From positions 64,001 to 128,000 of the forward strand of contig CAWBHS010000072.1 in NCBI GenBank assembly GCA_963788655.1: DNA of 64,000 nucleotides, in the 5' to 3' direction. Numbering within the stretch: position 1 is the first letter of the stretch; each line of letters starts with the position of its first letter. Made by a program: the position numbers and the translations under genes. Below the pieces are notes generated by a model, which was given only the letters and a program-made list of their open reading frames with translations, was not told the origin of the DNA and ran no database searches. This DNA comes from an uncultured Verrucomicrobiae bacterium (lineage in GTDB: Bacteria > Verrucomicrobiota > Verrucomicrobiia > Limisphaerales > JAFGQR01). This document shows, one piece after another, positions 18,357-64,000 of this stretch.

Positions 18357-20443
18357 ATGAAGCCGCAAAATAAATCGATTGCTGGATTGGCGTTGCCACG
18401 CCACTTGGAAACTTCTCTCCACACTGTCTGCAAGCGCCCTTGGCTCCGATGGCCAAGCTTCCGCAGCGTGGCCGGGCTTTCGGCCGGTTGCTTGCTGTTC
18501 ATTGCCCTCGGGGCGCCCGCCGCGCAGCCGGATACAATTTCCACGGCGACGCTGCTCAACGATATGACGGACCTGGCCGGTATGGCCGAGTTCCCCACGC
18601 CCGCTTACACTTGCAAGCAGTTTTCGTCTTATGACCGCAAGGCGAAGTCACCGACGCAGGATTGGTTTGCCAACGGCGATTGCGGCCAATATCTGCGCGT
18701 CGAAGAACGCGCCGGACGCAAGGAGTTCGTGATGATGGATACCGACGGTCCGGGAGCCATTGTGCGGATCTGGTCCGCCAATCCGCAGGGCACGCTGCGC
18801 GTTTACCTTGACGGCGCGGCGCAACCCGTGCTCGAAGCACCGATGTCGGAATTGTTGGGGGGCAAATATCCGGGTTTGCCGCAGCCCATCGCCGGCGAAT
18901 ACAGCAAGGGCTGGAACCTCTATTTTCCAATTCCTTACGCGCGGCACTGCAAGGTGACCAGCGACAAGGGCAATTTCTATTATCACGTGAACTACCGGAC
19001 CTACCCGGCCGGCACTCCAGGTCGCGACCTTTCGTGCCGAACAAATCACCGAATTGGCCAATCGGATCAAACAGGTCGGAGCCATATTGGCCGAGCCACG
19101 CAGCTTGGCGCGGACGCTGGGTGGTGAAGTGGAACCGTTCGAGGTGCAATTGCCGCCTGGTGAAACTGTACGCCAGGAATTTTGGGGACCGAAAGCGTTC
19201 ACCCGATCGATGGTGCGTTTGTCCGCCAATGACCCCGTGGCCGCGCTGCGCGGGATCATTGTGAAGATCACCTTTGACGGCGAGCGTTGCCTCGAGGCGC
19301 CGTTGGGTGATGTCTTTGGCAGTGCGCCTGGAATCAATCCGTATGCAACGTTGCCGCTGGGAATGACCAAGGACGGCGAGATGTATTGTCACTGGTTCAT
19401 GCCCTTCAAAGACTCGGCGGTCATCGAACTGGTGAACCACAGCCGCGAAAGCGCCTGGCTCACCGGCGAACTGGCGATCAAAGATTATCGCTGGACGGAG
19501 TCCTCGATGCATTTCCACGCCAAGTGGCGGGCGCAGTTTGATGTGCCTACGCGGCCGATGATCGATTGGAATTACCTCACGGCGAAGGGCCAGGGGGTAT
19601 TCGCGGGCGTAGCCTTCGCGATTGATAATCCCGTGAAGGCTTGGTGGGGTGAGGGCGACGAAAAAATCTACGTGGACGGCGAAACGTTTCCCAGCCACTT
19701 CGGTACGGGCACGGAAGATTATTACGGTTATGCCTGGTGCTGGCCGGTGCCGTTTATGCACGCCTACCATGCGCAACCGCGTTGCGACGGACCGGGAAAT
19801 TACGGCCGCACCAGTGTGAACCGGTTCCACATTCTTGACCGCATTCCGTTCACCAAGGATTTCAAGTTCGACATGGAACTGTGGCATTGGGATGCCAAGT
19901 GCAAGGTGAATATGGCTGTGACGGCGTACTGGTATGCCCGTCCCGGCGGGACCGATGCCTTCAAGCCGATTCGCGCGGAAGACGCCGTGGTGCGGCCAAT
20001 GCCCGAATGGGTGGTGCCGCACGTGGCGGGTGCGCTGGAGGGCGAAAAACTGCGGATCGTCCGCGTGACGCGGCACCGCCGAACCGCAGGATTGGGACGG
20101 CGTCAGCGCCGGACGGCATTTGTGGTGGCATGCCGGCATGAAGCCCGGCGACACGCTGGCGGTAGCCTTTACCGCGCCGAAAGCCGGTCGTTACCGGGTG
20201 TTAGGTCGATTCTTGCAGGCGCGCGATTACGGCATTCATCAACTCGCGATCAATGGCAAGAACACCGGTGCGCCGATGGATTTCTACAATCCCGAGGTGC
20301 GGCCGACGAAGGAAATTGACTTGGGCGTTTACGATTTGAAAGCCGGCGAAAACGAATTCTCCGCTACGGTCGTTGGCGCGAACGAGCAGGCGATCAAGAG
20401 CTACATGCTGGGCTTGGATTACCTGCTGCTGAAGCCGGAATAA
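18357..20443 (+). CDS. Secreted DUF2961 / GH172-like glycoside hydrolase with C-terminal beta-sandwich; frameshifts near 19020 and 20070
   Basis: QFSSYDR, GPGAIVRIWSANP, YFPIPY; then YCHWFMPF, WWGEGDEKIYVDGE.FPSHFGTGTEDYYG; three overlapping ORFs in successive frames. Confidence 0.82.
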
Positions 20444-31786: not shown

Positions 31787-31875
31787 GTTGTGGCACGGTT
31801 TCAAACCTGAATCGATCCAAAACTCAGCGCATCTCACAGTTGCCAAGCCGAGATTTTCAGGTAAAAACTCCGGCC

Positions 31876-34800
31876 ATGTTAGCTCGCAAATCATTCATCA
31901 ATTCTGGGAAGCATCTCCTGGCCTTGGCCGCCCTGGCCCTAATGGGTTCGCTCGCTGCCAACTCATTAACCGCCGCGTGGCATCCGGCCCAAGGACCGCT
32001 GATGACCCGTTGGGCCAAGGACGTTTCTCCGCAAAAGGCGCATCCGGAATATCCCCGCCCCCAAATGGAGCGCCAACAATGGATGAACTTGAACGGCCTG
32101 TGGGAATACGCCATCACGCCCAAGGACGCGCCCAAGCCCACGAAATGGGATGGCGAAATTTTGGTGCCCTTCCCGGTCGAATCCGCGCTGTCGGGCGTGA
32201 TGAAGATGGTCGGCCCCGACCAGATGCTTTGGTACCACCGCACCTTCAAATTGCCGGCTGACTGGAAAGAAAAGCACGTGCTGCTGCACTTCGGCGCGGT
32301 GGATTGGGAAAGCCGCGTCTGGGTCAACGGCTGGGAATACGGCCCGCACCGCGGCGGCTACGATGGCTTCAGCTACGACATCACCGACGTGCTCAAACCG
32401 GAACTGCCGCAGGAAATTCTGGTGGCCGTTTGGGATCCCACCGACGCGGGCACGCAGCCGCGCGGCAAACAGGTGCGCAATCCCCACGGCATCTGGTACA
32501 CCCCCACCAGCGGCATCTGGCAGACCGTGTGGCTGGAACCGGTCAACGCCAGTTACATCGAAAGTCTCAAGCTCGTGCCGGACATTGACAACGGCCGGAT
32601 TAACGTGTCCGTGAAAACCCGCGGTGAAATGGTCGGCGCCACGGTCGAAACCACCGCCACCATTGGCAAAGATGAAGTGGGCAAAGTAGTCGGTGCTCCG
32701 GATGAACTGCACAAAGTGCCCGTGCCCGACGCCAAGTTGTGGTCGCCCGATTCGCCCTTCCTTTACGACTTGAAGGTCATCCTGCGCGTCAACGGCAAGG
32801 TCACTGATGAGGTCACCAGTTACTTCGGCATGCGCAAAAATTCCCTTTGCAAAGACGACTGACGGCACGTTGCATCTTTGCCTGAACAACCAGCCGCTCT
32901 TCCAATTTGGTCCGCTCGACCAGGGCTTCTGGCCCGACGGCCTCTACACCGCGCCGACGGATGAAGCCCTTCGCTACGACATCGAAGTGACCAAGCAACT
33001 CGGTTTCAACCTGGCCCGCAAACACGTGAAGGTCGAGCCCGCCCGCTGGTACTACTGGTGCGATAAACTTGGCTTGCTGGTTTGGCAGGACATGCCCAGT
33101 GGGGACCGTTCCATTCGCCGGAATCAACGCGATCTTCAGCGTTCTCCAGAATCCGCGGCGCAATATGAAGCCGAACTCAAGGCCATGGTTGAAGGGCGGT
33201 TCAACCATCCCTGCATCGTAATGTGGGTGCCGTTCAACGAAGGCTGGGGCCAGTTCGACACCGCCCGGATCGTGGACCTCATCAAGCAATGGGATCCGAC
33301 GCGATTGGTCGATGATGCCTCCGGCTGGACGGATCGCGGGGTGGGCGACGTGATGGATATTCATCGCTATCCGGGGCCGGCGGCGCCGTCAATCGAAGCG
33401 AATCGCGCCGGCGTGCTGGGCGAATTCGGTGGCTTGGGTCTGCCGGTCAAAGGTCACACCTGGCAGGACGAAAAGAACTGGGGCTATCGCAGTTTCCAGA
33501 ACGCAGACCAACTCACCGAGGCCTATCTGGGGCTCATTGAAAAGCTGCATCCCTTGACCGGGCGCCCGGGACTGGCGGCGGCCGTTTACACGCAGACCAC
33601 CGACGTGGAAATCGAGGTCAATGGCTTGATGACGTATGACCGCGCCCAGATCAAAATGAATGCCGACGCCGTCGCGGCGGCCAACCAGAAAGTCTATGTC
33701 CCGCCGCAACCGCGTCGCGCCGAAGGCAACAAACTGGTACCGCCGGCCACGCCGCTGGTGGCTTGTGATCCGTATTTCAGCATCTGGTCGCAAGCGGACA
33801 AATTAACCGACGTGGACACCACGCATTGGACCGGCAAGCCGCAGCGGTTGTCCAGCTTGGTGCGGATCGATGGCCAGGCCTATCGCGTCATGGGTGCCGA
33901 ACCGCGCCGCGTGCCGGCGCTCGACGCAAACCAGTCTGACCGTGCTGCCGACGCGCACGATCTACAACGTTCGAAGGCGCGGGCGTGGCGCTGACGCTGA
34001 CGTTCATGACGGCGGCGCTGCCCGAGAACATCGACCTGCTGTCGCGACCGGTCACGTATCTCACTTATGATTTCAAGGCGACTGACGGCAAGACCCACGA
34101 CGTGCAAATCTATTTCGGCGCTTCGGGGGAACTGGCCGTCAACACTCCCGACCAGCCGGTAACCTGGTCCAGCGAAAAAGTCGGCGACCTGACGGCGTTG
34201 AAGGTTGGTTCGACCACCCAGCAGATTCTCGGCAAGAAAGGCGACGATCTCCGCATCGACTGGGGCTATCTCTACGTGGCGGCGCCATCCGGCGAAGTGG
34301 CTTCCCAGGTCTTCGCCGGGCCGGCTGTAACCCAAAGTGGTTTCGTGGAAAACGGCATGCGAGCGGTGCGGGTGCTCAGCTTCGAAGCGCCGGAGACGGG
34401 CGGGGATCTCTGCACGGCGATGGCAACGCGCAGCTTCCAAGTCGGCGAAGAAGCCACATCCCGCTGGCTCATGCTTGCCTACGACGATCTCTATTCGATC
34501 CAATACATGAAGCAGAACCTGCGGCCCTACTGGCGGCGCAACGGCTGGGAGGCGGCCGATCTGCTCAAGGCCTCGGCGAAGGATTACGAGTCGCTCAAGC
34601 AGCGTTGTGCCGCGTTCGACGACGAACTGATGGCCGACCTCACCCGCGACGGCGGCGAGAAATACGCCAAGATTGCCGCGCTGGCGTACCGCCAGTGTTT
34701 CGCCGCCGGCAAGTTCGTGGCGGACGCGAACGGCCAGCCGCTCCAGTTCTGCAAGGAGAACCATTCCAACGGCTGCATCGGCACGTCGGACGTGTTCTAC

Positions 34801-36244
34801 CCGATGTCCCCGCAGTTCCTGCTGTTCGGCCCGTCGCTGGCCAAGTCGTTCCTCGTGCCGTTCATGAATTACGCGGCCAGCGACGCTGGACGTTTCCCTT
34901 CGCGCCGCACGACCTCGGCACTTACCCGAAGGCCAACGGCCAGGTCTATGGCGGCGGCGAACGCGGCGAGGACAACCAGATGCCCGTCGAGGAAAGCGGC
35001 AACCTGCTGATCCTGATGGCGGCCATCGCGCAGATGGAAGGCAACGCCGACTTCGCCGGGCTTTATTGGCCGCAGCTGGAGAAGTGGGCGGAGTATCTCA
35101 AGGACAAGGGATTTGATCCGGAAAACCAGCTTTGCACCGACGACTTCGCCGGGCACCTCGCGCACAACGTCAACCTGTCGCGCCAAGGCGATTTGCGGCC
35201 TGGGCTGCGTTTGCGCAAACTGTGCGACCTGCGCGGCGACCAGGCCCAGGCCGACGAGTATTCGAAGCTCGCCAAAGAGTTTGCCGCAGCGATGGATCGA
35301 AGGAGGCCGACGACGGCGATCATTTCCGGCTGGCCTTCGACAGGCCCGGCACCTGGAGCCAGAAATACAACCTGGTCTGGGACCGCATCCTCGGCCTGGA
35401 CCTGTTTCCCGCGAAGCCGTCAAGCGAAAGGAGATGGACTATCTACCAGAAGGTCGCAGAACCACTACGGCCTGCCGCTCGACAATCGACGGACCTACAC
35501 CAAGCTCGACTGGGTGCTCTGGACCGCCACGCTCACGCAGAACCGCGACGACTTCGAATGCGCTGGTGGATCCGGTCTTTCGGTTCCTCAACGAGACGCC
35601 CGACCGTTCGCCGATGACCGACTGGTATTTCACCACCGACGCCCGCAAACGTCGGCTTCACCGCGCGGCCGGTGGTGGGCGGCGTGTTCCTGCAGATGCT
35701 CTACGACGATGCGACTTGGAAGAAATACGCCAGCCGCGACAAGACCAAGGCCTCCGGTTGGGCGCCGATGCCCAAGCCGCCGAAAATTGTGACGGTGGTT
35801 CCCACCGCGCAGCAGGAGGCGGTTACGTGGCGTTACACCACCACCAAGCCTGGCGATAATTGGTTTCAACCGGGCTTCGACGACTCCTCCTGGAAACAAG
35901 GACCGGCGGGCTTCGGCACCCGCGGCACGCCGGGCGCCGTCGTGCGCACCGTGTGGAACACCCCGGACATCTGGCTCCGCCGCGAACTGACTTTGCCCGA
36001 AGGCAAAACTGACGATCTCCAATTGCTGGCCCACCACGACGAAGACATGACGGTGTATCTCAATGGTGTGCTCGCCGCGAGCGCCGGCGGTTACACCTCC
36101 GGTTATGATCCGTTTCCGATGAGCGCCGCTGCGTTGGCCGCGCTCAAGCCTGGCAAGAACGTCATCGCCATCCATTGCCACCAGACGACGGGCGGGCAGT
36201 ACATCGACGTTGGGTTGGCCAAGGTCATCGAAGTGGACGAGTAG
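31876..36244 (+). CDS. Large secreted fusion: GH2 glycoside hydrolase + DUF4964/DUF5127/DUF4965 (GtaA glutaminase-like) + C-terminal jelly-roll; multiple frameshifts
   Basis: [59 protein letters not shown]; in-frame [17 protein letters not shown]; later [45 protein letters not shown]-terminal HHDED...[11 protein letters not shown]. Confidence 0.82.
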
Positions 36245-49059: not shown

Positions 49060-49169
49060 AGGTCGAATTTTTATCATTAATGGTTCGAAGTAACAAGTGA
49101 CTTTGTGCGGCGGGGTGTGCCTGTCCATGTTTGCCCATCCGAAGTGCCCTGGGGCATAAATACGTTGAC

Positions 49170-49304
49170 GTGGCGCCGACTTCCAGCCTGCCGTATCGCG
49201 GAGTTCCAATCCGCTGGCCGCACGCCCACCGTGGTCCACGCCGAATTCTTCCACGCGCTGCCGACTGGAAGTCGGCGAGACAGCAGGTGGGAAACCGGCG
49301 CTAC
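49170..49304. repeat. Inverted REP-like pair in the divergent intergenic region
   Basis: GTGGCGCCGACTTCCAGCCTGCCGTATCGCGGAGTTCCAATCCGC ... GCCGACTGGAAGTCGGCGAGACAGCAGGTGGGAAACCGGCGCTAC. Confidence 0.7.
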
Positions 49305-49455
49305 GAGACGTCGCCCGGCAATACGTCACCGAACTTACGCCCCGAACCACTCAGTGACGATCTTTCAGCCGCGCCCGATGCTCATCCATGAGCCCCCGGA
49401 CAGCGCTTCCGCGTTAAACGATGGCGGAGCGACGCCTCCTGCGCTATGGTCTGTC

Positions 49456-50514
49456 ATGTTTGTGAAAGGAATCGGCACCGCAGTTCCCCCGTCGCACTAC
49501 ACGCAAGCCGAATGTTGGGAAGCGTTGCGAGCCGCGCCTGAATACGCGGAGTTGACCACCCGTTCCCGGGCCCTCCTGCGGAAAGTGCTCTTGGGCGACA
49601 ATGGCATCGAGCGACGTTACCTGGCACTGGATCCATTGGCTGAGGCGTTTTGCTTGACGCCTGATGCGATGCACCATCGCTTTCTCAAGCATGCGCCGAC
49701 ACTCGCGGCGAAGGCCGCCGAGCGGGCGCTGCGGCAGGCCGGTGTCGCGACACAAGAAATCGATGCCCTCATCATCAGCACCTGCACCGGGTATTTGTGT
49801 CCGGGGCTCACGAGTTACGTCAGCGAGCGTCTCGGATTGCGCAGCGACACGCTGGGATTGGATTTGGTGGGACAGGGGTGCGGCGCGGCGTTGCCGAACT
49901 TGCGAACGGCCGCCGCGTTGTTGGCGGCCGGCAATTGCGCGAACGCGTTGTGCGTCTGTGTGGAGGTGTGCAGCGCGGCGTTCTATGTGGACGATGATCC
50001 CGGCGTGCTGGTCAGCGCCTGCCTCTTCGGTGACGGCGCGGCGGCGGTGGTGGTGTCGGGGCAACCATCGGGGGTTGGACGGCGGATTGCGTGGAGGGAC
50101 GCGGAGTCCCTGCTGAGCCCGGCGGATCGCGACGGCCTGCGCTTCGAACAACGCAATGGCATGCTGCGGAACATTCTGACGCGCCAAGTGCCGGCCCTGG
50201 CGGCCCGGCATGCCGAGACGGTGCTGAGCACGGCGTTGGCGCGCGCACATGTCAACCGGACCGAACTCACCGGTTGGATCCTGCACGCCGCCGGCCGGGA
50301 CGTGCTACTGGCGCTGCGGGAACGGTGGGGATTGGCCAACGAGGATTTGCGCTGGAGTGCGGCAGTGTTGCGCGAACACGGCAACATGAGCAGCGCCAGC
50401 GTGCTGTTCGTGCTCGCGGCGGCACTGACGGCCGGCGCCCCGGGCGGCTGGTGGTGGATGTCGTCCTTTGGCGCCGGCTTCACCTGCCATGGCGCCTTGT
50501 GGGAAGTCGAGTAA
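49456..50514 (+). CDS. Type III polyketide synthase (chalcone/stilbene synthase family)
   Basis: Cys-His-Asn triad GQGCG, ILHAAG, HGNMSSAS; STCTG; LFGDGAAA; FGAGF. Confidence 0.93.
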   Translation: MFVKGIGTAVPPSHYTQAECWEALRAAPEYAELTTRSRALLRKVLLGDNGIERRYLALDPLAEAFCLTPDAMHHRFLKHAPTLAAKAAERALRQAGVATQEIDALIISTCTGYLCPGLTSYVSERLGLRSDTLGLDLVGQGCGAALPNLRTAAALLAAGNCANALCVCVEVCSAAFYVDDDPGVLVSACLFGDGAAAVVVSGQPSGVGRRIAWRDAESLLSPADRDGLRFEQRNGMLRNILTRQVPALAARHAETVLSTALARAHVNRTELTGWILHAAGRDVLLALRERWGLANEDLRWSAAVLREHGNMSSASVLFVLAAALTAGAPGGWWWMSSFGAGFTCHGALWEVE

Positions 50515-50555
50515 ACCGCGCATCACCCTGCGAAAATCGTTGATTGTTTTTACGC

Positions 50556-51260
50556 ATGACCTCTCGTTTCGTTCAACCCGAATTACTGGATGAACTCCCC
50601 CCCACCAGTCCCGACGCTTTGCGATCACGGCGTGACATCAACCGCATCAACGCCTGGCTGGGCCACGCGCGTTACTTCGCGCGCGCGCTGCGGGAATCCT
50701 CGCGGGCGGCGCCGCTTCGGCGAGTGGCGGACCTTGGTGGTGGCGACGGCACGTTTTTACTCCGCGTTGCCCGGCGCCTTGACGGTCTCGAACCCCCGAA
50801 GGAAGTGACCTTGGTGGATACGCACCCGATGGTTTCCGCCGCCACCCGCGATGCGTTGCGTGCCCGGGGGTGGTCACTGCATTGCGTCCGCGCGAACGTG
50901 CTTGATTGGATTCGTAACGAAGGGGCTTCGAATTATGACATCCTGCTGGCCAACCTGTTCCTGCACCATTGCTCGGCCGAACAGCTCCGGGCTCTCTTCA
51001 CCGCCGCGGCGCAACGCACCCGACGGTTGGTTGCGGGTGAACCCGCGCGGCGTCCTGGTGCGCGGCTCGGCGCCTCGCTGCTCTGGCTGCTTGGCTGCAA
51101 TCACGTCACGCGTCACGACGCCCGCGTCAGCATCTGCGCCGGTTTTCGGGGACGCGAACTCTCGACATTGTGGCCTGGCGACGGTGAGTGGCAGTTGCAA
51201 GAAAAGCCCAGCGGATTGTTCAGCCACTTCTTTTATGCCTGGAGGGCTGACGCGAAATAA
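50556..51260 (+). CDS. SAM-dependent methyltransferase
   Basis: PELLDE, ADLGGGDG, ANLFLHH, VTRHDARVSI.AGF. Confidence 0.88.
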   Translation: MTSRFVQPELLDELPPTSPDALRSRRDINRINAWLGHARYFARALRESSRAAPLRRVADLGGGDGTFLLRVARRLDGLEPPKEVTLVDTHPMVSAATRDALRARGWSLHCVRANVLDWIRNEGASNYDILLANLFLHHCSAEQLRALFTAAAQRTRRLVAGEPARRPGARLGASLLWLLGCNHVTRHDARVSICAGFRGRELSTLWPGDGEWQLQEKPSGLFSHFFYAWRADAK

Positions 51261-51281
51261 GTGCCATGCGATGAACGTGCC

Positions 51282-52322
51282 ATGACCTCGCGCCAACCCA
51301 TCACGATCGTCGGCGGCGGACTGGCTGGGCTTGCCTTGGGTCTGGCATTGCGCCGGCGCCAGGTGCCGGTCACGCTGTGGGAAGCCGGACATTATCCGCG
51401 GCACCGCGTCTGTGGCGAATTCATCAATGGCCGGGGGGTGCAAACCCTTGAGCGACTGGGGATGCTTGAACTAGTATTGCAAGCTGGCGCCCATTGGGCT
51501 CGCGAGGTTGCCTTCTTCGCCACCGACGAATTGCAACTCAAGCGTTCGCTCCCGCGACCGGCTTTGTGTGTGTCGCGTTACGTATTGGATGATTTGTTGG
51601 CGCGCGAGTTTCGCCGGTCGGGCGGCGAGCTGCTGGAGGGCCGGCGGTGGACGGCGAGTACGTCCGGGAACGGTATTGTCCGGGCCAATGGCCGGCGACT
51701 CCAAGCGGTGGTGCGCGGGTGGCGTTGGCTGGCGCTGAAGGTGCATGTTGGCGAGGTTCCACTTGCCGCTGACCTGGAAATGCATTTGTCGTCCGACGGC
51801 TACGCTGGTTTGTCGCGCGCCAACGGCGCCATCAATGTCTGCGGATTGTTTCGGAGCCGCGGACCCTGGCCTCAACTGCGTGAGCATTGGCGCGCGTTCT
51901 TGTTTGGGCCGCCGGATTCCCCGCGGCACTGTCGGCTGAGCCAGGCCGAGTTGGACGACAATTCGTTTTGTTCGATTGCTGGATTGTCCGTGGAACCGCG
52001 GCTGGCCATCGATGACGATTCGTTGGCAGTGGGCGATGCGTTGACGATGATTCCGCCCATCACCGGCAACGGCATGTCCATGGCCTTCGAATCGGCTGAG
52101 CTCGCCGCCCACGCGCTTGAACCATATTGCGAGGGAGAGCAATCCTGGGCGTCCGCGCGCCAGCGGTATGCCCGCCGATGCCGTCAACAATTTGGGTCGC
52201 GACTGGTGGCCGCGGCGCTGTTGCACCGGGTCATGTTCGCTCGCGGGGCGCGACACTTCCTGGCGGCATTTCTGAAACACTGCCCGTGGATGTGGCGGAT
52301 CGGCTTTCAATTAACGCGATAA
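51282..52322 (+). CDS. FAD-dependent oxidoreductase/monooxygenase
   Basis: IVGGGLAG, YPRHRVCGEF, VGDALTMIPPITGNGMSMA. Confidence 0.88.
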   Translation: MTSRQPITIVGGGLAGLALGLALRRRQVPVTLWEAGHYPRHRVCGEFINGRGVQTLERLGMLELVLQAGAHWAREVAFFATDELQLKRSLPRPALCVSRYVLDDLLAREFRRSGGELLEGRRWTASTSGNGIVRANGRRLQAVVRGWRWLALKVHVGEVPLAADLEMHLSSDGYAGLSRANGAINVCGLFRSRGPWPQLREHWRAFLFGPPDSPRHCRLSQAELDDNSFCSIAGLSVEPRLAIDDDSLAVGDALTMIPPITGNGMSMAFESAELAAHALEPYCEGEQSWASARQRYARRCRQQFGSRLVAAALLHRVMFARGARHFLAAFLKHCPWMWRIGFQLTR

Positions 52323-52578: not shown

Positions 52579-53550
52579 ATGATTACCTCGCGCCGTACCT
52601 TTCTGCGATACTGCTCGCTCAGCGCCGCCGCGCTCGGACTGAACACGGGCAAGTTGGGGCTGTTGCAAAACGCCCTGGCCAATCCCAATGGCCCCTCGGT
52701 GATCTGGTTGATTGGCAGTGCCTGCACCGGATGTTCCGTCTCTTTTCTCAACCGCATTTCCGACAAGGTGGGCGAACCCGCCACAGTGGCCGAAGTGCTG
52801 ACCGAAGCTGTGAACCTAGTGTTCCATCCCACCATTATGGGGGCGGCGGGAGAAACCTCGGTGGCGGCCCTCAAACGAGTGTACAACAGTGGCAATTATG
52901 TATTGGTGCTGGAAGGCGCCGTGCCGACCGCCTTCGGGGGCCATCCCTGTGTGGTGTACAGTTACAACGGGGTCGAAGTGACCTTCCAACAAGCGGTTCA
53001 GGAACTGTCGGCCCGGGCCAACGCCGTGGTTTGCGTGGGGACTTGTGCGTCCTTCGGCGGCATCCCGGCTTCCGGCTCCAACCCCACGAAAGCGATGAGT
53101 GTGCGGCAACTCACCGGTCGGCCGACCATCAACATTTCCGGCTGTCCAGCGAACCCGGACTGGGTGGTTTGGGCCATCGTGCAATTAATCCTCGGCGCCC
53201 CGGTGCCGCTCGATGAAGACGGACGCCCGATTGCCATTTACAGCACGGATCATCAAGGGGCGGCGGCGGAACCGTTCATTCATGACAAATGCCCGCGCAA
53301 TCCCGGCCTGCATGGCGTCCTGGAAGCCGAAAATTTCGGTGAACAAGGCCATTGTCTGCGCTATTTGGGGTGCCGGGGTCCGTTCACTAAATCTCGCTGC
53401 GAAGCGTCCTGGAACGGCATTGGCGGGAACACCTATCCCGATCCCCACCCCGGCAACTGGTGCATCGGAGTCAATGCTCCATGCCATGGTTGCGTGGAAA
53501 AAACGTTTCCCGGTCCGCAATCGTTTTCCGAAAACTACAATCCCGAATAA
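52579..53550 (+). CDS. [NiFe]-hydrogenase small subunit, Tat-exported, group 1a-like
   Basis: SRRTFL Tat motif; ACTGC, GTCASFGG, SGCP (proximal cluster); HDKCPR, CLRYLGC (distal); C...WC...PCHGC (medial); no C-terminal TM anchor. Confidence 0.93.
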   Translation: MITSRRTFLRYCSLSAAALGLNTGKLGLLQNALANPNGPSVIWLIGSACTGCSVSFLNRISDKVGEPATVAEVLTEAVNLVFHPTIMGAAGETSVAALKRVYNSGNYVLVLEGAVPTAFGGHPCVVYSYNGVEVTFQQAVQELSARANAVVCVGTCASFGGIPASGSNPTKAMSVRQLTGRPTINISGCPANPDWVVWAIVQLILGAPVPLDEDGRPIAIYSTDHQGAAAEPFIHDKCPRNPGLHGVLEAENFGEQGHCLRYLGCRGPFTKSRCEASWNGIGGNTYPDPHPGNWCIGVNAPCHGCVEKTFPGPQSFSENYNPE

Positions 53551-53568
53551 CCCCCAATTGAGAATCGT

Positions 53569-55034
53569 ATGCCAGTCATCACGGCAGCCATAGATCCGAT
53601 CACCCGCATCGAGGGTCACCTCAAAATCAACGTCAAGGTCGATACGGTGAACGGCGTCCAGCAAGTGGTCGATGCCTTTGCCATCGGCACGCTGTTTCGC
53701 GGTTTCGAAAAACTGCTCGAACAGCGCGATCCGCGGGATGCCACCATCATTACCTCGCGGATATGCGGGGTTTGCCCGAACGTCGCATGCGATGGCTGCG
53801 GCGCTGACGCTCGACCAGGCCTACGGCGTGAACGGCGACACTCTGCCGCGTAGCAATTCCCGGTTGTTGCGCAACTTGGTGCATGGGGCCTGCTACATCG
53901 AATCGGCCATCTTGCACTTTTACCTGCTTTCTCTGCCCGACTTTATTCAAGGGTTGCCGATGGCGCCCTGGCTGCCGGGTTGGGACGTCGGGCGGCGATT
54001 TGATCGCGACACGCAAAATCGCCTGACCGGTCATTTCCTCGAAGCCGTTACCATGCGCCGCAACGCGCACGAAATGGGCGCCATTTATGGGGGCAAATTG
54101 CCCCATACGCCTGGTTACATCATGGGCGGGTTTACGGCGGTTTCCACCCCGGAGAACAAAACCCTCTTCGGGCAATACTTGGACCAGATCATTGCCTTCG
54201 TCGAAAACACCCACATTCCCGATGCGGAATTGCTGGCGTCCCTTTACAGCGAATATCAGACACTCGGCCGGGGCTACGGCAATCTGCTGTCCTTTGGCGT
54301 GTTTCGAATTGGATAACGGGGCCGAACCGCAATTGCTGTTGCCCCGCGGTCGGGTGGAAAACGGTGGTTCAACGGTCCAACCGGTGGACGCGGGGCAAAT
54401 CACCGAACACGTACGCTATTCCTGGTACACCGACAGCGACAACGACAAGAATCCCACGGTGGCCGATACCGTGGCGCAGTATCCGAAAGGTGATGCTTAT
54501 TCGTGGTTGAAAGCGCCCCGTTACAACGGCCTGCCACACGAGTGCGGACCGCTGGCTCGCATGACGGTTTCCGGCGAGTACACCAACGGCATTTCCGCCA
54601 TGGACCGGCATTTGGCGCGGGCGCGCGAGACGCTCAAGATTGCCAAAGCGATGCGCGATTGGCTGGCGGCGGTGACCCCCGGTCAAGGCGGTTACACGCA
54701 TCGTGATGCGCCGGCTTCGGCCACAACGGCGGGATTGACCGAAGCGCCTCGCGGCGCGCTGGGCCACTGGCTGGAGGTAGCGGATGGAAAGATCGCTAAA
54801 TACCAAGTCATCACCCCCACCTGTTGGAATGTGTCACCCAAAGACAGCGCCCAACAGCGTGGTCCACTGGAACAGGCGTTGATCGGTGTGCCGGTCAACA
54901 ACGTGGATAAACCCATCGAAGTGCTGCGGATTGTCCATTCTTTCGATCCCTGCCTGGATTGCGCGACCCATGTCACGCGCGCCGAACCCGGCGCCCAAGT
55001 GTTTGCGCTGGGTGGCCTCCCTGCCAACGTCTGA
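53569..55034 (+). CDS. [NiFe]-hydrogenase large subunit; frameshifts near 53780 and 54305
   Basis: DPITRIEGHL, L1 SRICGVCP, ILHFY, YSWLKAPRY, EAPRGALGHW, PTCWN, L2 SFDPCLDCATH followed by a cleavable tail. Confidence 0.92.
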
Positions 55035-55044
55035 ATCCGCTGAC

Positions 55045-55548
55045 ATGGATGATTCGCCGCGAATCCTGATTGCCGGAGTCGGCAACGTGTTGCTAACCGA
55101 CGACGGGATTGGTGTCCACGCCGCCCGGCAATTGCAGCAGGAGGATCTCACGGGAGTGGAAGTGGTTGAAATCGGTACGGCGATCCTTCACGGGTTGCAC
55201 TTCCTGGAAGGCGCCGACCGGGTTCTGATCATCGACGCCGCACGCGGAGGACAAGCTCCCGGCACGATCTATCGGTTCGACGCGGGCGAGCCGACCTCGC
55301 CCAACCAGTTGCTTTCCGTTCACGCCGTGGGCTTGCAGGAGGCGATCCGGCTGTTGCCACCCGAAGTCCCGCCGCCGGCCATTACCGTGTTGGGCGTTGA
55401 ACCGGAATCACTCGATTGCGGAATGAATTTGTCTCCGCGACTCCAACAAGTGCTGCCGCGCGTGGTTTTCCTGGCCCAGGAAACCGTTGCGGCCTGGAGG
55501 CTGGAAGCTTCGGAAGAATTGGCCAGTTTTGCCGGAACGCTCAGATGA
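55045..55548 (+). CDS. Hydrogenase maturation protease (HyaD/HybD/HycI family)
   Basis: GVGNVLLTDDGIGVH, IIDAA, PGTIY, SVHAVG, LGVEP. Confidence 0.92.
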   Translation: MDDSPRILIAGVGNVLLTDDGIGVHAARQLQQEDLTGVEVVEIGTAILHGLHFLEGADRVLIIDAARGGQAPGTIYRFDAGEPTSPNQLLSVHAVGLQEAIRLLPPEVPPPAITVLGVEPESLDCGMNLSPRLQQVLPRVVFLAQETVAAWRLEASEELASFAGTLR

Positions 55549-55583
55549 ACGCTCCATTTTCGCGACAACCAAAAAGAGTTGCT

Positions 55584-58500
55584 ATGAAGAATCGCTTGAA
55601 ATTCCTGTGCGCCGCGATGTTCGGCCTGGGGCTCGTTGGAACTGCGCCCGCCGCCACCACCGACGGGTCCGTGACCTTCACCGTTACACTTTACAATGCC
55701 GGCGGCAATTATCAGCCGCGACACGTCGATGCCGTGTGGGTGACCGATGACGCCGGGAACTTCATCAAGACCCTGCGCCGCGAAGGCTCGAACTGGTCCG
55801 GCGAAGGTACTCGTCACCTCGATCAATGGCAGGCCACCCGCAATGGCTCCCAAGTTATTGACGGCTACACCGGCGCGACCACCCGGAACTACGATCCGTT
55901 CACCGTCCAATGGAATTGCCGCGATGCGAACAACACGGTGGTGCCGGATGGGGTTTACAAGTTTTTCGTCGAGACGACGGATCGGAACGGCCAGGGTCCC
56001 TGGACTCAGGGTGGGATTGCCTTCACCAAGGGACCGGCACCCCAGACGATTTTTCCTCCCGATTTGCAGTATATTAAGGGGATGCGGCTCGAATACATGC
56101 CGGCGGGGCCGCTGCCACACGATGTGGCAGTGCTGGGGATCGAGCCGCTGGTCTTTGCCAAAAGCACTTTAGCCCGTCCTTATGTGATTGTGACCAACCT
56201 CACGACCACGCCGGACAGCTTCAATCTTTCATTGAGCAACTTGACAACGGGAACACTGATCCGCAATCAGACCGTCAATCTCGCAGCCAATGCCGGCCAA
56301 AGTATTCCCATGCTATGGGTCATTTCCACCACCCCGGTCGGCACTTATCTCCTTGAGGCCAGAGCAACCCCCATCGATGGCGAAACGAGTCTGGCGGACA
56401 ATGTTTTCACCGCCGAGGTAGCCATCCGGACGCCAACGCACGATGTCGGCATTACCGGAATCACTGCATCCGGCGTAATACCTCCGGACACGCTCACCAA
56501 TATCGAAGTGACCGCCAGCAATCTTGGTGATTACGCGGAAACCTTTGCGGTGACCCTGACCGATGTAACCACCTCCATCCTGATTGGTTCCAACCTCGTT
56601 TCCGGATTGGCGGCCGGCGGCGATTCAGTGCAAACCTTTCCTTGGGATACTGCCGGTTTGGCTCCGGGCTATCACACGCTGCGCGCGTCCGCTGCTTCGG
56701 TAACAGGGGAACTCGAATTAGCGAATAACGATTTTGAGCTGATGGTGCCGGTCGCCGCCAGTGTGCAAACGGTGCGACTGGTGCCGATGCAAAGTGTCTG
56801 GCGCTATAATGACACCGGCATTGACCTCACTCAGACGCCCTGGCGGGAACTTGCTTACTACGACACATTCTGGGCGCAAGGACCGGGCCCCTTGGGCTAC
56901 GGTGAACTCAGCGGGCTGAACACGGATACCCTGCAATTCGGTCCCGATTCGGATAACAAGTATCCGACCTACTATTTCCGGCAGACCTTTAACGCCGACT
57001 TCCTGCCGCTGGAATTAACCTTGCGCTTGCGCCGCGACGACGGTGCGGTCGTGTATCTCAACGGTGAGGAAATCGCGCGCGACAATATGCCGGACGGCCT
57101 CATTGCGTTCACCAATCTGGCAACCACGACCATCAGTGGCGCCGCGGAATTGGCCTATTATTCGTTCAGCGTGCCTGCCTCCAAGGTCCGGTCGGGTGCC
57201 AACGTGCTGGCGGTGGAAGTGCATCAAAGCACTCAGGACAGCCCCGACCTTTCCTTCGATTTGGAACTCGAAGCCGTCGTTCCGCAGATCCCCGCCCAGC
57301 ACGAGGTCGCTGCGGTGCAAGTCAGCCCGGTTGCCGATGCTCTGGCTGGCGATCTGATGCCGGTCGCCGTCACCATCACCAACCAGGGCAATATCACCGA
57401 GACGGTTATCGTCATCCTCCAAGACACCACCGCCGATCAGATTTTGGGAACCCAGTCGGTGGGTGATGTGGCGCCCAACTCTGCTGCCTCTGTCCAGTTC
57501 AATTGGCAAACCCTTGGCGCCACGGCCGGCGGCCATCAACTGGCTGCCTACACCGTGGTCAATGGCGTCACCAATCTGGCCGGCACCGCGACCGCCACCG
57601 CGACGATCAGCGGAACCGGCCTCGGGGCGAATGCCGTCAATGCCCTCGGAACCATTGGCGGTCGATGCACTGCGGTGGCCACTTCCGGTAATCACCTGTT
57701 ACTGGGAGCGGGGGCCGCGCTGGAAATTTTCGATAAGTCCACGCCCACCACCCCCGTCAAACTGGCCGCGCTCCGGCTGCCCGGAGTGATTGAAGATATT
57801 GTTGTCGCCGGCTCCGAAGCGTATGTCGCCTGCGGCAATGCGGGAGTTCAGATCGTGAATATTGCCACGCCGGCCAATCCCGTGTATCGCACCACCTTTG
57901 ATTCTTCCGGCCACGCGTACGGCCTGGCGGTTAGCGGCACGTACCTGTATGTCGCCGATGGCGCCAGCGGGTTGCGGATTCTGGACATTTCCAATCCGGC
58001 CTCGCCATCGATTGCCGGCTCGTATCACACGACTGGTCCGGCCCGCGCGGTCGCGGTGTCCGGCTCGACGGCTTACGTTGTCGATTTGCAGAATGGAGTG
58101 GTCGTGCTCAACGTCTCCAGCCCGCAATCGCCCACGCTTCTGGGGGCCAGCAGTGCCTTCGATGCGGGCCAGGCCCTGGCCGTTGCCGGGGCGAATGTTT
58201 ATGTTGTGGATGGCAACCGAATGCTCCACGTCATTGACGTTTCCACACCGAATACGCCCACGGCGGTGGCCAATTTCCTGTTGAGCGCGGTTGGACAAGC
58301 GGTGACACTGGACGGTTCCGTTTTGCACGTCGCGGCCGGCAACTCCGGTTTGTTGACCGTGGATGTGTCCACGCCGTCCGCGCCCGAGGAACTCACCCCG
58401 CAGGCCACGCCGGGTGAAGCCGCCGATGTCACCTTGGATGGCGCCTCCCTTTACCTGGCCGAAGGTTTCGCTGGCTTTCAAGTCTATGATGTTTCCTCAC

Positions 58501-59780
58501 CGACCGCTCCGTCACTCCAAGGTGAATTTGCTGAAGGCGTGCGGGCGGCAGACGTGGTGGTGGCGAATGGCAAAGCTTACGTGGGAGCCGGCGAGGCGGG
58601 ATTGCAGATTTATGATTTGGCCAATCCCGCTGCACCGGTCTTGCTCAGCCGGTTCACCGAGACCGCGAACGCTCGTTGTCTGGCCCTCGCTGGCAACATG
58701 GCGTGCGTCGGTGACAGCCAGTATGGATTGAAATTGGTGGACGTGGCCGATCCGGCTCATCCCGCCTTGCTCGGGACTTTGTTGAGCGCCGACTTGAGTT
58801 ACCTCCGCAGCATTGCCGCCGTCGGCACCCAGGTGATTGTCACGGACGGACGGAAGATTGGATTGGTGGATGCCTCCGATGCCGCGCATCCGGTGCTGAG
58901 TGATACTTACGATGCGCCTGCCTTTGCCTACGCGGTTGCGGTCGCCGGCTCGCACGCTTACGCCGCTTGTGGCAACGCCGGTTTGTTGATTCTCAACGTC
59001 GGGGCCAACAGTCTTTCCTTGGCCGGTTCGTACGACACTCCGGGTTTGGCCCAGGGAGTGGCCGTTGCCGGAACCACGGCGTTTGTGGCGGACGGAGGCA
59101 GCGGTTGGCTGACGTTGGATGTTACTGATCCGGCGGCGCCGGCGTTGCTCCAATCCTCGTCCAGTGAAGGACCGGTCCGCGACATTGCGGTTTCCGGCGT
59201 TCTGGCCGCCCTCGGCAGCGGGGCCAATTCGGCGCAACTGCTGGATGTCACCACTCCGGTCACGCCGGTGCCACAACAAGCCTTTGGACCGCTGGTGCAT
59301 GCCTTGCGGGTGGCTCTGAATGGTCAAGTAACCCTGACCGCCGAAGACGAAGCCGGTGTTGCCATCCTGGGCATGGTTGCCAATCCCGAGGATACCGACC
59401 ACGACGGTTTGCCCGACGACTGGGAAATGCTCATCGTCAACGCGAATCCCAATGATGCCATCACCGGTATTGAAGACGTGCTGCCGACCGATGACTTCGA
59501 CGGCGACTCGCTTTCCAATTACGCCGAATACCTCGCCGGCACATCTGCCACTGACCCAAGTTCCAAATTCATGGTGCAGGTCAACGGCGGCATTGGTGGA
59601 ACCGGCGCCAATCTGCAGTGGGACAGTGTTGCGGGTCGGATTTACACCATTTACCGGACCACCAACTTGGCGGATGGCTTCACCGAGTTGGACAACCATA
59701 TCCCCGCTACCCCGCCGCGGAACACCTATCCGCTCAGCGCCGGCGGCGGCACCGCGTTTTACATCATCAGCGTACGGTAA
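55584..59780 (+). CDS. Large secreted protein: DUF2271-like domain, CARDB/Ig-like repeats, jelly-roll, LVIVD repeats, Ca-binding DxDxDG motifs and C-terminal domain
   Basis: Signal peptide; YQPRHVDAVWVTD...IDGYTGAT...WNCRD...VPDGVY; three HDV/HEV-starting CARDB-like repeats; DDGAVVYLNG...NVLAVEVHQ; >10 repeats such as YLYVADGASGLRILDISNP; DTDHDGLPDDWE; ends FYIISVR. Alternative start ATG 55545 overlaps the protease stop. Confidence 0.88.
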   Translation: MKNRLKFLCAAMFGLGLVGTAPAATTDGSVTFTVTLYNAGGNYQPRHVDAVWVTDDAGNFIKTLRREGSNWSGEGTRHLDQWQATRNGSQVIDGYTGATTRNYDPFTVQWNCRDANNTVVPDGVYKFFVETTDRNGQGPWTQGGIAFTKGPAPQTIFPPDLQYIKGMRLEYMPAGPLPHDVAVLGIEPLVFAKSTLARPYVIVTNLTTTPDSFNLSLSNLTTGTLIRNQTVNLAANAGQSIPMLWVISTTPVGTYLLEARATPIDGETSLADNVFTAEVAIRTPTHDVGITGITASGVIPPDTLTNIEVTASNLGDYAETFAVTLTDVTTSILIGSNLVSGLAAGGDSVQTFPWDTAGLAPGYHTLRASAASVTGELELANNDFELMVPVAASVQTVRLVPMQSVWRYNDTGIDLTQTPWRELAYYDTFWAQGPGPLGYGELSGLNTDTLQFGPDSDNKYPTYYFRQTFNADFLPLELTLRLRRDDGAVVYLNGEEIARDNMPDGLIAFTNLATTTISGAAELAYYSFSVPASKVRSGANVLAVEVHQSTQDSPDLSFDLELEAVVPQIPAQHEVAAVQVSPVADALAGDLMPVAVTITNQGNITETVIVILQDTTADQILGTQSVGDVAPNSAASVQFNWQTLGATAGGHQLAAYTVVNGVTNLAGTATATATISGTGLGANAVNALGTIGGRCTAVATSGNHLLLGAGAALEIFDKSTPTTPVKLAALRLPGVIEDIVVAGSEAYVACGNAGVQIVNIATPANPVYRTTFDSSGHAYGLAVSGTYLYVADGASGLRILDISNPASPSIAGSYHTTGPARAVAVSGSTAYVVDLQNGVVVLNVSSPQSPTLLGASSAFDAGQALAVAGANVYVVDGNRMLHVIDVSTPNTPTAVANFLLSAVGQAVTLDGSVLHVAAGNSGLLTVDVSTPSAPEELTPQATPGEAADVTLDGASLYLAEGFAGFQVYDVSSPTAPSLQGEFAEGVRAADVVVANGKAYVGAGEAGLQIYDLANPAAPVLLSRFTETANARCLALAGNMACVGDSQYGLKLVDVADPAHPALLGTLLSADLSYLRSIAAVGTQVIVTDGRKIGLVDASDAAHPVLSDTYDAPAFAYAVAVAGSHAYAACGNAGLLILNVGANSLSLAGSYDTPGLAQGVAVAGTTAFVADGGSGWLTLDVTDPAAPALLQSSSSEGPVRDIAVSGVLAALGSGANSAQLLDVTTPVTPVPQQAFGPLVHALRVALNGQVTLTAEDEAGVAILGMVANPEDTDHDGLPDDWEMLIVNANPNDAITGIEDVLPTDDFDGDSLSNYAEYLAGTSATDPSSKFMVQVNGGIGGTGANLQWDSVAGRIYTIYRTTNLADGFTELDNHIPATPPRNTYPLSAGGGTAFYIISVR

Positions 59781-61536: not shown

Positions 61537-61736
61537 TTTTACGTTCGGGCTGCTCGGTAACAAGGAGGAAGCCGATGGCCGCTCGATTGTCGGAAGAGAA
61601 ATCCGGTGCTGGCTAAAACCGAAATCCGAAGCGGACGCTGCCTTTGCGTTTCTTCGAGTTTATTGCGGCTGGATTGCTCCTTTCGGAGTGCAATTTTCGA
61701 TTTGCAGTCTTGGGTGGTTCTTCCGCACCTTCCGGC

Positions 61737-64000
61737 ATGCCTTTACCGACATGCAGACTGTTCTCGCGAACGGCTCAACTGGTGGTTGCCAGTGTGTTGT
61801 TCGGAATTTTTGCCCCGACCACCTATGCCGCTCCGGCGCTAACCAGTTTCGATTTCACCCAACCGGAGGTTGTCCAGCAGTGGCACGCGGAGCACCACAT
61901 TGCTTCGCTTAAAGCCGCGCCGGAAGGCTTGGAGGTCATGATCAACGGGCCGGATCCCTATTTTTCCGGACCACCGCAGGATTATCCGGTGGAGATTCCG
62001 TTGTGGGTGACACTGCGGTTAAAATCCGAGGCCGGTGGCAGCGGGCAATTGTTCTTCTACCGGGACCATCCCCGCGAGGAACAGTCAGTGCATTTTCCCG
62101 TGTTTCCTGGTGACTGGCGGGAGGTGCGGGTGAAGTTGCCGCCGCTTGGCCCCGGTTTTCGCTTCCGCATCGATCCACCCGGCGCGCACGGTCAATTCCT
62201 GCTGGCTGCGATAACCATTATGCCGGCCGTTGCGTTGCGTGCGCCGGAATGGACCAAAGCCAGCCCGCCGCGTTTGGCCGGTGATGAGGCTTCGATTCAA
62301 TCCGGTGCGCTCCGATTTATTCAACCCGTAGTGAACTGGGGCAGTTTGCCGTGCAAGTCGCCGGCAACCCCATGGCCATTGGGCACAATCGGCAGCAGAT
62401 CGGCTACCTGCTAGACGATCACTTGCACTGGTTCGCTTTGGCGCCGGCGTCCACCCGCAGCTTTGAAGTCCGCCAGGAAGGCCAGACCATTTTCGTGCAA
62501 GGCCGGTATGTGGACCCGAACCAGGGTGTTTGGGAAGTTGCCCAACGGTTTTCGCCGGCGACGATTCCCGATGCGATCGATGTGGCAGTGACCGTGCAGG
62601 TCAGCGCCGCGCGTTCGGTCGTGTATCTGCCGCTACTGACCTTGCTGCCTGGGGTCGGCAGTTTCGGCACGAACAAACATCAAGGGTTGTTTGCCGGTTT
62701 GGAATACCTGGCCAACGAACCAAGCAGTTCGGAGGCGGACCTCCGCGGACCGGCGGCCCATCGTCTGGTGCCGGATACGCTTAAGATCACGTTCCCGCTG
62801 ATGGCCATTCAGGCGGAGCAACGTTATGTAGGTCTGATTTGGGAAATGCAGCCGGAGTTCAGCGCCCTGTTTGATTCACCGGATCGCACCTTCAACAATG
62901 GCGGGCACGCCCTGGTCATCCTGTTTCCCGGCTCGAACGGCGCCAACCGCGACGATGGGCAACTGCTCCCCAACGACGGAACCGTGATCCAACCCGGACA
63001 GCCTGTGACCTTGCGGGCAACCATCCTTGGCGGCCGCGGAGACAGCGTGGTACCGGCGGTCGAAAACTATGTGCGGCTACATAAGTTGCCACCGCTGCCG
63101 GAAGCCATGACGATGAAAGATTACCTGCGCGTGGCGGCCGGCGGTTGGCTGGATTCGGGCTGCCGCGAAGGCAATCGTTTTCGGCACGCGGTCTGGCCCG
63201 GGTTTGGCGCTCAACCCGCCGCCGACGCTGCGTTCTACATGGACTGGCTGGCGCAGCAGACGGGCGATGCGGATTTATCCATGCGCTTACACGATACCGC
63301 GAGTCAAGCCTTGGCGGCGGTTCCCCTGGAAAATTATTATGCCTCCGCCGTCAGTCACGTGCGTTTTCCGGTCGTACCATTGGTGTATGGCCACGTGCTG
63401 GAGAGCGTTCAACAGGCGACAGCTATTGGGCGAAATCTGTTGCACCGGTTCGAGCCGGATGGGCGCGTTTTGTATCGCCCTTCGCCCAACAAGCCGGATT
63501 ATGGTTCGACCCATTTCGCGCCGGACGCCAATGGCTTGACGGCCCAAGTGGTCATGAGTCTGTTGGACGCCGCGGCCTTCTCCGGCGACGCCGATTTGAT
63601 TCACGAAGGCTTGCAAAGTCTTCGGGCATTGGACCGTTTCCGCAACACCGTGCCGCGCGGCGCGCAAACCTGGGAAGTCCCGCTGCACACGCCCGACATC
63701 CTGGCGGCGGCTTACCTGGTGCGCGCCTACACGATGGGGTATGAACTGACCGGCGATCCGGAATTTCTCGACGCGGCGCGGTACTGGGCTTGGACGGGCG
63801 TGCCGTTCATTTACTTGCGCGATCCCTCGCCCCAGCCCATTGGCCGTTATCTGACGCCGCCGGTGTACGGCGCGACCAGTTGGGTGGCTCCCGTGTGGAT
63901 GGGGCTGCCGGTGCAGTGGTGCGGCCTCGTTTATGCCGATGCTCTGTATCGACTGGTGCGTCACGATTCCCAAGGGCCATGGCAACAATTGGCTCAAGGG
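61737..64000 (+). CDS. Large secreted hypothetical protein (partial; frameshift near 62330), C-terminal part possibly an (alpha/alpha)-barrel glycan-active domain
   Basis: Signal-like N-terminus in ORF 61644..62414; another + frame stays open from ~62340 to the window end (GLFAGLEYL, VPRGAQTWEVPLHTPDILAA, YELTGDPEFLDAARYWA, WMGLPVQWCG). Confidence 0.65.

Follow-up and report, generated by a model that had tools for sequence, protein, structure and literature searches.

A hydrogenase operon ending in a giant secreted protein

The stretch of DNA analysed here (the window) comprises 64,000 nucleotides of contig CAWBHS010000072.1, from the assembly of an uncultured Verrucomicrobiae bacterium, and holds at positions 52579-59780, on the + strand, four co-directional units: a [NiFe]-hydrogenase's small and large subunits, a hydrogenase maturation protease and a fourth gene, hereafter gene 4, coding for a giant protein with a DUF2271 domain and LVIVD repeats. 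A first-pass annotation had described four tightly spaced genes; the units are co-directional and their order recurs in relatives, but the large subunit is not one open frame, being spread over three (see below). The small subunit lies at 52579-53550 (PF01058 and PF14720), the large subunit at 53569-55034 (three PF00374 pieces) and the protease at 55045-55548 (PF01750, a HycI match; 65.8 bits). The database gene call for gene 4 is of 1398 amino acids (P0279), close to the roughly 1400 first proposed for a secreted product, and thus begins with the ATG at 55584 and stops at 59780; as had been pointed out, an alternative in-frame ATG at 55545 overlaps the TGA of the protease gene. A Sec-type signal peptide, judged by eye, occupies 55584-55658, and in relatives 25-35 residues precede the DUF2271 domain. 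The absence of an adjacent gene for a cytochrome b, HybA/HybB or a c-type cytochrome was borne out by a Pfam scan of the neighbouring genes, and no PepSY-type membrane protein was found among the neighbours scanned in the window and in relatives. A scan of the window returned no promoters and six terminator-like sites, fewer than the shuffled means, and no upstream motif was shared among the operons of 10 close relatives. Upstream, at 49105-52322, are a type III polyketide synthase-like gene (recognized by eye), a methyltransferase and an FAD-dependent monooxygenase, which are not kept beside the operons of relatives.

The small subunit carries a twin-arginine (Tat) signal, RRTFL, and no hydrophobic tail at its end, in agreement with the first reading of the sequence; a membrane tail is absent from all 33 small subunits compared. 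It has three sets of [4Fe-4S] ligands, with Cys at the medial site as in the NiFeSe/group 1a type, and the ligands are conserved in the 33 proteins, the second proximal Cys being replaced by Asp in two. The L1 and L2 motifs of the large subunit, RICGVCP and DPCLDCATH, are found in the window and in relatives. For both subunits the closest solved chains are those of NiFeSe enzymes (E-values of 1e-110, vs 1e-75 for group 1b; 3ze6_A is the best match of the small subunit), and the best NCBIfam model for the small subunit is that of the NiFeSe small subunit, under its cut-off, with HysA and HysB scores far under theirs. HysAB of Desulfovibrio vulgaris and Desulfomicrobium baculatum (PDB 3ze6, 5jsu, 1cc1) is thus the closest solved enzyme, and it shares Tat export, a soluble small subunit and the medial-cluster Cys. 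However, it carries Sec where L2 here carries Cys (a TGC codon in the window, and Cys in all complete relatives listed), which rules out an identity with HysAB, and here a 1400-residue protein with DUF2271 and propeller domains is co-encoded. Membrane-bound enzymes of group 1d or 1c (HyaABC, HybOABC) were also rejected, there being no C-terminal anchor and no adjacent cytochrome b or HybA/B. The enzymes of the window and its relatives appear to form one group 1a-like clade, soluble, Tat-exported and devoid of an anchor or an adjacent cytochrome b, in trees built without HydDB references. Cytochrome c3 is the partner of the Desulfovibrio group 1a hydrogenase; the missing partner, which the annotation had taken to be a cytochrome b, is better seen as a cytochrome c3, the enzyme being group 1a-like. 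The annotation had proposed a search for hyp genes, and hypF, hypD and hypE were found in this genome. By our reading, its three other large subunits have neighbourhoods of the 3c/3d type; two Hdr-Mvh-like (group 3c) hydrogenase clusters are present (L111:3392-10554 and L113).

The three frames of the large subunit (53569-53853, 53672-54316 and 54087-55034) are related by two +1 frameshifts, single extra bases near 53779 and 54303 that both fall within short homopolymer runs. Were both shifts real and recent, the operon would be dead in this organism, a question separate from the role of the intact operon; two or more shifts in this one gene are indeed improbable (Poisson chance of about 0.03 at the genome-wide 0.19 shifts per kb). 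However, 219 open reading frames (ORFs) taken from a 400-kb portion of a complete genome belonging to the same order were compared with this assembly, and 15 of the 84 clear orthologs were frameshifted, very conserved genes among them; hypD is likewise split. Moreover, the pieces of the large subunit show no decay, agreeing with 168 of the 170 columns that are conserved among 46 intact relatives; the relatives depart from these columns at 0-7 places each. Because of these three observations the two frameshifts are probably assembly errors, and we regard a dead operon as quite improbable. One sequencing run of DNA, containing 8% of the words, gave no coverage at the frameshift sites. Split reading frames occur elsewhere in the window (31840-36244, 19054-20443 and 61644-64000), which fits an indel-rich assembly.

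Architecture and inheritance of gene 4

Gene 4 opens with a DUF2271 domain (55659-56102; PF10029), as the annotation had suggested from its likeness: it scores 29.9 bits, above the cut-off of 27.3, and 33.8 bits in a second scan. This head is followed by an arm (56112-57617), initially described as CARDB-like spacers and a jelly-roll. An AlphaFold model of residues 26-689 (mean pLDDT 89, pTM 0.58) shows the head and, after it, two CARDB domains, a jelly-roll of the GH2 type and a third Ig domain; the CARDB fold matches 3idu (Z 14.2, rmsd 1.7 Å over 102 residues) and the jelly-roll the GH2 sugar-binding domain 9m0e (Z 12.1, rmsd 3.5 Å over 142 residues). The Pfam match to CARDB falls just under the cut-off (22.6 vs 22.7 bits). 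The low pTM is consistent with flexible joints between the domains, and a Foldseek search with the 664-residue model returned generic multi-Ig proteins only. The LVIVD repeats (57636-59387, about 580 residues; PF08309, 214.7 bits over seven stretches) presumably form two beta-propellers and are retained across all gene 4 lineages; motifs in this region are conserved in 34 giants and are common to the propeller-only forms described below. In a search for homologs of the propeller region, the specific relatives were swamped by generic LVIVD proteins. The giants span 1400-2100 residues, and the number of Ig spacers varies.

The LVIVD repeats are followed, again as first described, by a C-terminal domain, which together with preceding Asp-rich TSP3-like repeats occupies 59394-59780. 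The last 73 residues are predicted to fold as a small Fn3-like sandwich (best Z in the fold search 6.8); this tail has no Pfam family, a search at E ≤ 0.001 found nothing similar to it, and its fold matches were generic Fn3 folds, all at Z < 7. Tail and jelly-roll alike matched only unnamed clusters in the ESM Atlas. A sorting domain of the type IX secretion system (T9SS) is unlisted among the fold matches, which does not exclude one. The domain proper (59559-59777, about 70 residues) ends in an FY-x-V-like strand. A profile of the tail, iterated three times on C-terminal hits and so favouring C-terminal matches, matched 176 ORFs in this genome, 158 of them no more than 25 residues from the end; among ORFs of at least 400 residues, 104 of 115 matches were near the end. 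Pfam matches, mostly to lamin-tail (LTD), CotH, PKD, Ig, HYR and TIG domains, were obtained for 17 of 20 tail-bearing proteins (18 taken at random and two hand-picked cytochromes). Because of its C-terminal position and the type of cargo, the tail is a candidate export or anchoring signal of the Verrucomicrobiota.

A search of GTDB genomes with the small subunit yielded 31 loci, titled mostly Verrucomicrobia, Kiritimatiellae and Lentisphaerae; a DUF2271 gene stands behind the protease in 28, and the remaining three contigs stop before gene 4. Recurring in 28 of 31 loci, the gene order is not a matter of chance. A metagenome search with the head gave 35 loci, 26 of which have hydrogenase genes upstream; of the other nine, one contig begins inside the gene, seven genes are stand-alone, differently built or multi-DUF2271, and one is without a match. 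In a sample of 401 genomes of the phylum, the giant was found behind all 10 small subunits, other than that of the window, that scored above 430 bits. The synteny of the hydrogenase with DUF2271 and LVIVD, whose recurrence the annotation had proposed to test, does recur in other genomes, with hydrogenase genes no more than 3.5 kb upstream of 51 of the 53 distinct giant heads; of the two exceptions, one is a paralog in tandem within an operon and the other a gene cut by the start of its contig. The phylogenies are quick trees only; in that of 59 small subunits, the 46 that are linked to a giant and three from short contigs form one branch (SH-aLRT 98). Since the carrier genomes are related, these counts reflect inheritance as a unit and not many independent events. 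Four of 12 outgroup enzymes adjoin different secreted repeat proteins, which hints that the pairing of a hydrogenase with a scaffold arose more than once.

Several variants of these loci were seen. Duplications include tandem giants (L045/L088), two divergent operons on one contig (L050) and two operons in genome G454. A second hydrogenase type precedes a secreted protein with FGE-sulfatase-like and cadherin-repeat domains, beside a hyp cluster (L140:8960-13478 and L141:5805-11207), and in genome G317 its distance to the giant operon is about 8 kb; a sister hydrogenase precedes a secreted repeat protein with MBG domains (L188:7816-11028 and L189:4983-8438).

A relative that NCBI names Pontiella desulfatans (P0263) led to six matches in 54 genomes from a single family, one with the usual giant and five with a propeller-only gene 4, in which the propeller comes directly after the signal peptide (four complete at 600-654 residues, one cut by the contig end). 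The propeller-only forms have specific motifs and the tail in common with gene 4 of the window and, in a quick tree of the large subunit, are nested within the giant clade (96 and 100); therefore, the flavin head was lost. The invariant part of gene 4 is the LVIVD propeller with the C-terminal domain, not the flavin head, and the idea of DUF2271 as the invariant partner was discarded, as five genomes keep only propeller and tail. The earlier proposal of a flavinylated partner in place of a cytochrome fits most of the clade (DUF2271, motif, apbE and synteny) but not this nested lineage, where the head is gone. The large subunit of one propeller-only form is identical to an entry that NCBI lists for Pontiella desulfatans. 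Two DUF2202 genes lie upstream of propeller-only operons (L182:1052-3200, L183 and L186); downstream come genes for a two-component pair, for what may be an outer-membrane barrel and for a repeat protein of about 750 residues.

A protein with nine CXXCH motifs, MtrC/MtrF-like domains and a similar tail is encoded directly behind the operon in one of the five propeller-only genomes and about 7 kb behind it in two; the fourth has it on another contig, and none was found in the fifth (1.9 Mb). This nine-haem cytochrome is present in 21 of the 39 operon genomes, including this one, and in 11 of the 401 genomes of the phylum sample, the thresholds and search depth of the two counts being different; within the 401-genome search it was found in 2 of 9 carriers vs 8 of 391 others. 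Members of this secreted family (L181, at C6:32708-35152 of this genome, and L185:8600-11167) have MtrC/MtrF-like, Big_9 and PKD domains. The loss of the head together with a nearby nine-haem cytochrome resembles the interchange of flavin and cytochrome domains known in extracytosolic reductases (PMC8238504, main text), exemplified there by Listeria FrdA and Shewanella FccA, one enzyme family with a flavinylated domain or a multihaem cytochrome according to lineage. That text does not describe the interchange for hydrogenases, however, and here the carrier is on a separate scaffold protein.

Probable flavinylation of the DUF2271 head

DUF2271 has been shown experimentally to be an ApbE substrate, with the Thr of the motif as the site (PMC8238504, main text). 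The DGYTGAT motif was confirmed at 55860-55880, its last Thr being the predicted FMN site; the Asp and this Thr are invariant in all 32 aligned heads, 21 of which read [ST]GAT. From these motifs we strongly infer that FMN is carried on the last Thr of DGYTGAT. The first-pass annotation had also called for apbE in the genome: there are three copies, the closest (50-52% identity) on another contig, and apbE was found in 34 of 34 operon genomes tested. It comes next in 15 of the 33 operons that are complete and have 1.2 kb or more of sequence behind them (Pfam-confirmed in 10), and not in the window. No FMN_bind domain was found in this 86%-complete genome. A complex prediction for the small subunit and the head, with Fe-S clusters and FMN, scored 0.00 and gives no answer either way.

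In known ApbE-DUF2271 systems, mostly PepSY-linked (PMC8238504; PMC11334425), the DUF2271 protein likewise has a [ST]GA[ST]-type motif and a neighbouring apbE. In the main texts of these two studies, however, the DUF2271 protein is small, adjoins an electron-transfer protein of the membrane and is thought to reduce iron, whereas here the domain heads a giant beside a hydrogenase, with no membrane component; the word hydrogenase does not occur in either main text.

Other putative flavin carriers came to light. A stand-alone secreted DUF2271 protein with DGITGAT (39% identity to the head of the giant) is encoded in the window at 3644-4237, on the - strand, flanked by an esterase gene and an OPT transporter gene. 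A possible new class of multi-flavinylated proteins comprises secreted multi-DUF2271 products in which three flavinylation motifs stand amid Ig domains (L082:3525-8594, L083, L085:6195-10058, P0001 and P0003-P0005) and behind which a small PEP-CTERM-like gene follows; P0001 among them is a three-headed giant. At loci unrelated to the operon (L102:4912-15973 and, on the - strand, L104:6124-12837), apbE, a ferredoxin-FNR-PepSY fusion, DUF2271, a DUF5777 barrel and a motif-less DUF2271 head on cadherin repeats could make a complete flavin conduit from cytoplasm to surface. A secreted FGE-sulfatase-like protein of this genome (L114:5890-7029, contig C66), with DGVSGAT near its C-terminus, may be an unlisted ApbE substrate or a chance occurrence.

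The features of the head bear on whether it carries electrons at all. Gene 4 could simply anchor or export the enzyme, with the head structural (FlgD-Ig-like) or engaged in another redox job; the true partner would then be a cytochrome from another locus, for instance the nine-haem protein. The five genomes that lost the head yet keep propeller and tail would fit, as would the nine-haem cytochrome in 21 of 39 carriers, this genome included, the frequent co-scoring of FlgD_ig by DUF2271 members and the motif-less DUF2271-like heads on other surface proteins (L102, L104 and L105). Against it, Asp and Thr are retained in 32 of 32 aligned heads and apbE is directly next in 15 of 33 operons, and in 18 of the 39 carriers, many of them incomplete genomes, no nine-haem protein was seen. 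We give this explanation only a slim chance.

Proposed route and direction of the electrons

We lean towards the reading that gene 4 encodes a dedicated partner, whose propeller and tail hold and place the enzyme while the FMN head replaces cytochrome c3, electrons from H2 passing to an acceptor outside the inner membrane. By its sequence and established knowledge, the hydrogenase is matured by the Hyp proteins and the protease and exported folded via Tat; the gene 4 product would leave via Sec and, very probably, receive FMN from ApbE on the last Thr of DGYTGAT in the periplasm. The propeller-plus-tail core would then hold the hydrogenase, and the C-terminal domain may route the complex to the location of the other large modular proteins of the genome, most likely the outer surface. 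The head on its CARDB arm would take electrons from the distal [4Fe-4S] cluster, the role of cytochrome c3 in Desulfovibrio, and pass them to an extracytoplasmic acceptor, candidates for which are a secreted multihaem cytochrome, Fe(III), humic quinones or O2. The net effect would be that H2, possibly the cell's own fermentative H2, supplies the cell envelope with reducing power; direct pumping of protons is probably not involved.

Several observations weigh against this reading. As regards the partner, eight of the 12 outgroup hydrogenase loci have no large neighbour, so that group 1a enzymes of the phylum can use partners encoded elsewhere, and two of these outgroup genomes show neither apbE nor DUF2271; moreover, DUF2271 of this type occurs elsewhere in only one of the five propeller-only genomes and, the head being lost and four of the five having none, FMN is not essential to the enzyme. 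As regards flavinylation, nine of the 32 aligned heads read [ST]SAT and two deviate further from [ST]GA[ST], the motif counts covering aligned heads only, with 22 of the 53 distinct heads outside the individual alignment; apbE is non-adjacent in 18 of the 33 complete operons and in the window, and is found in 115 of 151 genomes of the phylum, so that only adjacency counts for much and its mere presence in a genome, at this baseline of 76%, was discarded as strong evidence. As regards the route, the proposed export role of the tail derives from its position only; PorV was not found in any of five genomes, with a positive control; RnfD/NqrB occurs in 19 of 34 carriers and neither in this genome nor in the complete genome G048; among the 34 carriers no membrane module (RnfD/NqrB or cytochrome-b-type) is common to all; and this genome has seven cytochrome-b-type matches, as well as 26 ORFs with at least three CXXCH motifs, so that other multihaem cytochromes could serve.

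These points bear on an alternative in which the complex stays periplasmic and electrons from H2 are relayed by the FMN head to a module of the inner membrane whose genes lie elsewhere (a cytochrome b/multihaem module, alternative complex III, or Rnf/Nqr); the enzyme would then be a respiratory uptake hydrogenase of the usual kind, though its carrier is unusual. Tat by itself delivers to the periplasm only, and a periplasmic location would also agree with the failure to find PorV and with the distribution of RnfD/NqrB and of cytochrome-b-type genes, the latter present in 22 of 34 carriers. Against it stand the lack of any one module in every carrier, the sharing of the tail with adhesin-like modular proteins, and a scaffold of 1400-2100 residues with variable Ig spacers, which exceeds the needs of a periplasmic shuttle; we consider it unlikely. 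As for the route to the surface, T9SS cargo of Bacteroidota likewise includes many large modular proteins that finish in a small beta-sandwich, and the same DUF2271 subfamily is found as such cargo: of 43 representatives, hand-picked from the best 150, it is joined to a T9SS sorting domain in 14. In contrast, gene 4 has no Pfam match to Por_Secre_tail, and the five genomes without PorV have several secretins instead (4-8 matches each); a search for SprA gave no match even in the controls and so has no bearing on its presence.

The direction of electron flow is a further point. In place of H2 oxidation, the head could collect electrons from external reductants (reduced humics, FeS, Fe0 or partner cells) or from cell surplus, and the enzyme could evolve H2, as does the MIC hydrogenase that corrosive methanogens secrete. 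The all-[4Fe-4S] relay is as in NiFeSe enzymes, which are good H2 producers. At 10 Pa, the potential of the H2 couple is about -296 mV (calculated from -414 mV), close to that of protein-bound FMN (-250 to -280 mV), so that the direction is not fixed. A secreted, H2-evolving [NiFe] enzyme does exist (PMC6181927). At higher H2, however, thermodynamics favour the flow from H2 to FMN, and Kiritimatiellia already have [FeFe] enzymes that release H2 (bioRxiv 10.64898/2026.10.06.756941); H2 evolution is, in our view, decidedly unlikely. The MIC (Foh) hydrogenase (PMC6181927; PMC12667266) resembles the present enzyme in being an anchor-less [NiFe] enzyme that is exported via Tat and has a protease of its own; in its case the site of action is extracellular. 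It differs in being archaeal, from cells with no outer membrane, in its co-encoded TatAC and carbonic-anhydrase-like protein, in having no flavin partner and in being reported outside groups 1-4, a comparison made by description. No TatAC/FohE-type cluster is present in the window; tat genes flank the operons of a few relatives (L033, L035, L036 and L049).

To our knowledge, exported hydrogenases with a known partner use cytochromes. The literature searched yielded no case in which a hydrogenase has a partner flavinylated by ApbE, and the impression that no operon of this architecture had been described was upheld, none having been found in full-text literature; supplementary cluster lists and most subscription journals lay outside this search, so that such clusters may be tabulated uncommented. 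The available portion of the preprint on Kiritimatiellia cited above covers [FeFe] loci, and DUF2271, ApbE and LVIVD are absent from it. Thus, the operon is real, strongly conserved and apparently undescribed, and is built from known parts. A bolder proposal, tentative and on balance doubtful, is that of an active [NiFe]-hydrogenase displayed by a diderm on its outer surface and riding on a propeller adaptor, using an undescribed export route of the Verrucomicrobiota marked by the C-terminal domain (about 150 cargoes in this genome), with a covalently flavinylated arm exchangeable for a secreted multihaem cytochrome and H2 coupled directly to minerals, humics, oxygen or neighbouring cells.

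The operon offers a directly testable case in bacteria of anaerobic lakes, soils and digesters that are usually viewed as plain sugar fermenters. Pontiella desulfatans is a cultured species and, given the identity of its large subunit with that of a propeller-only operon, location and binding could be tested in cells. The tail points to a possible export signal across the Verrucomicrobiota. If the favoured reading is true, bioelectrochemistry could take an interest in a hydrogenase that is tethered to the surface and has its flavin relay built in, and the operon would represent an apparently undescribed way of linking H2 to chemistry at or beyond the cell surface.

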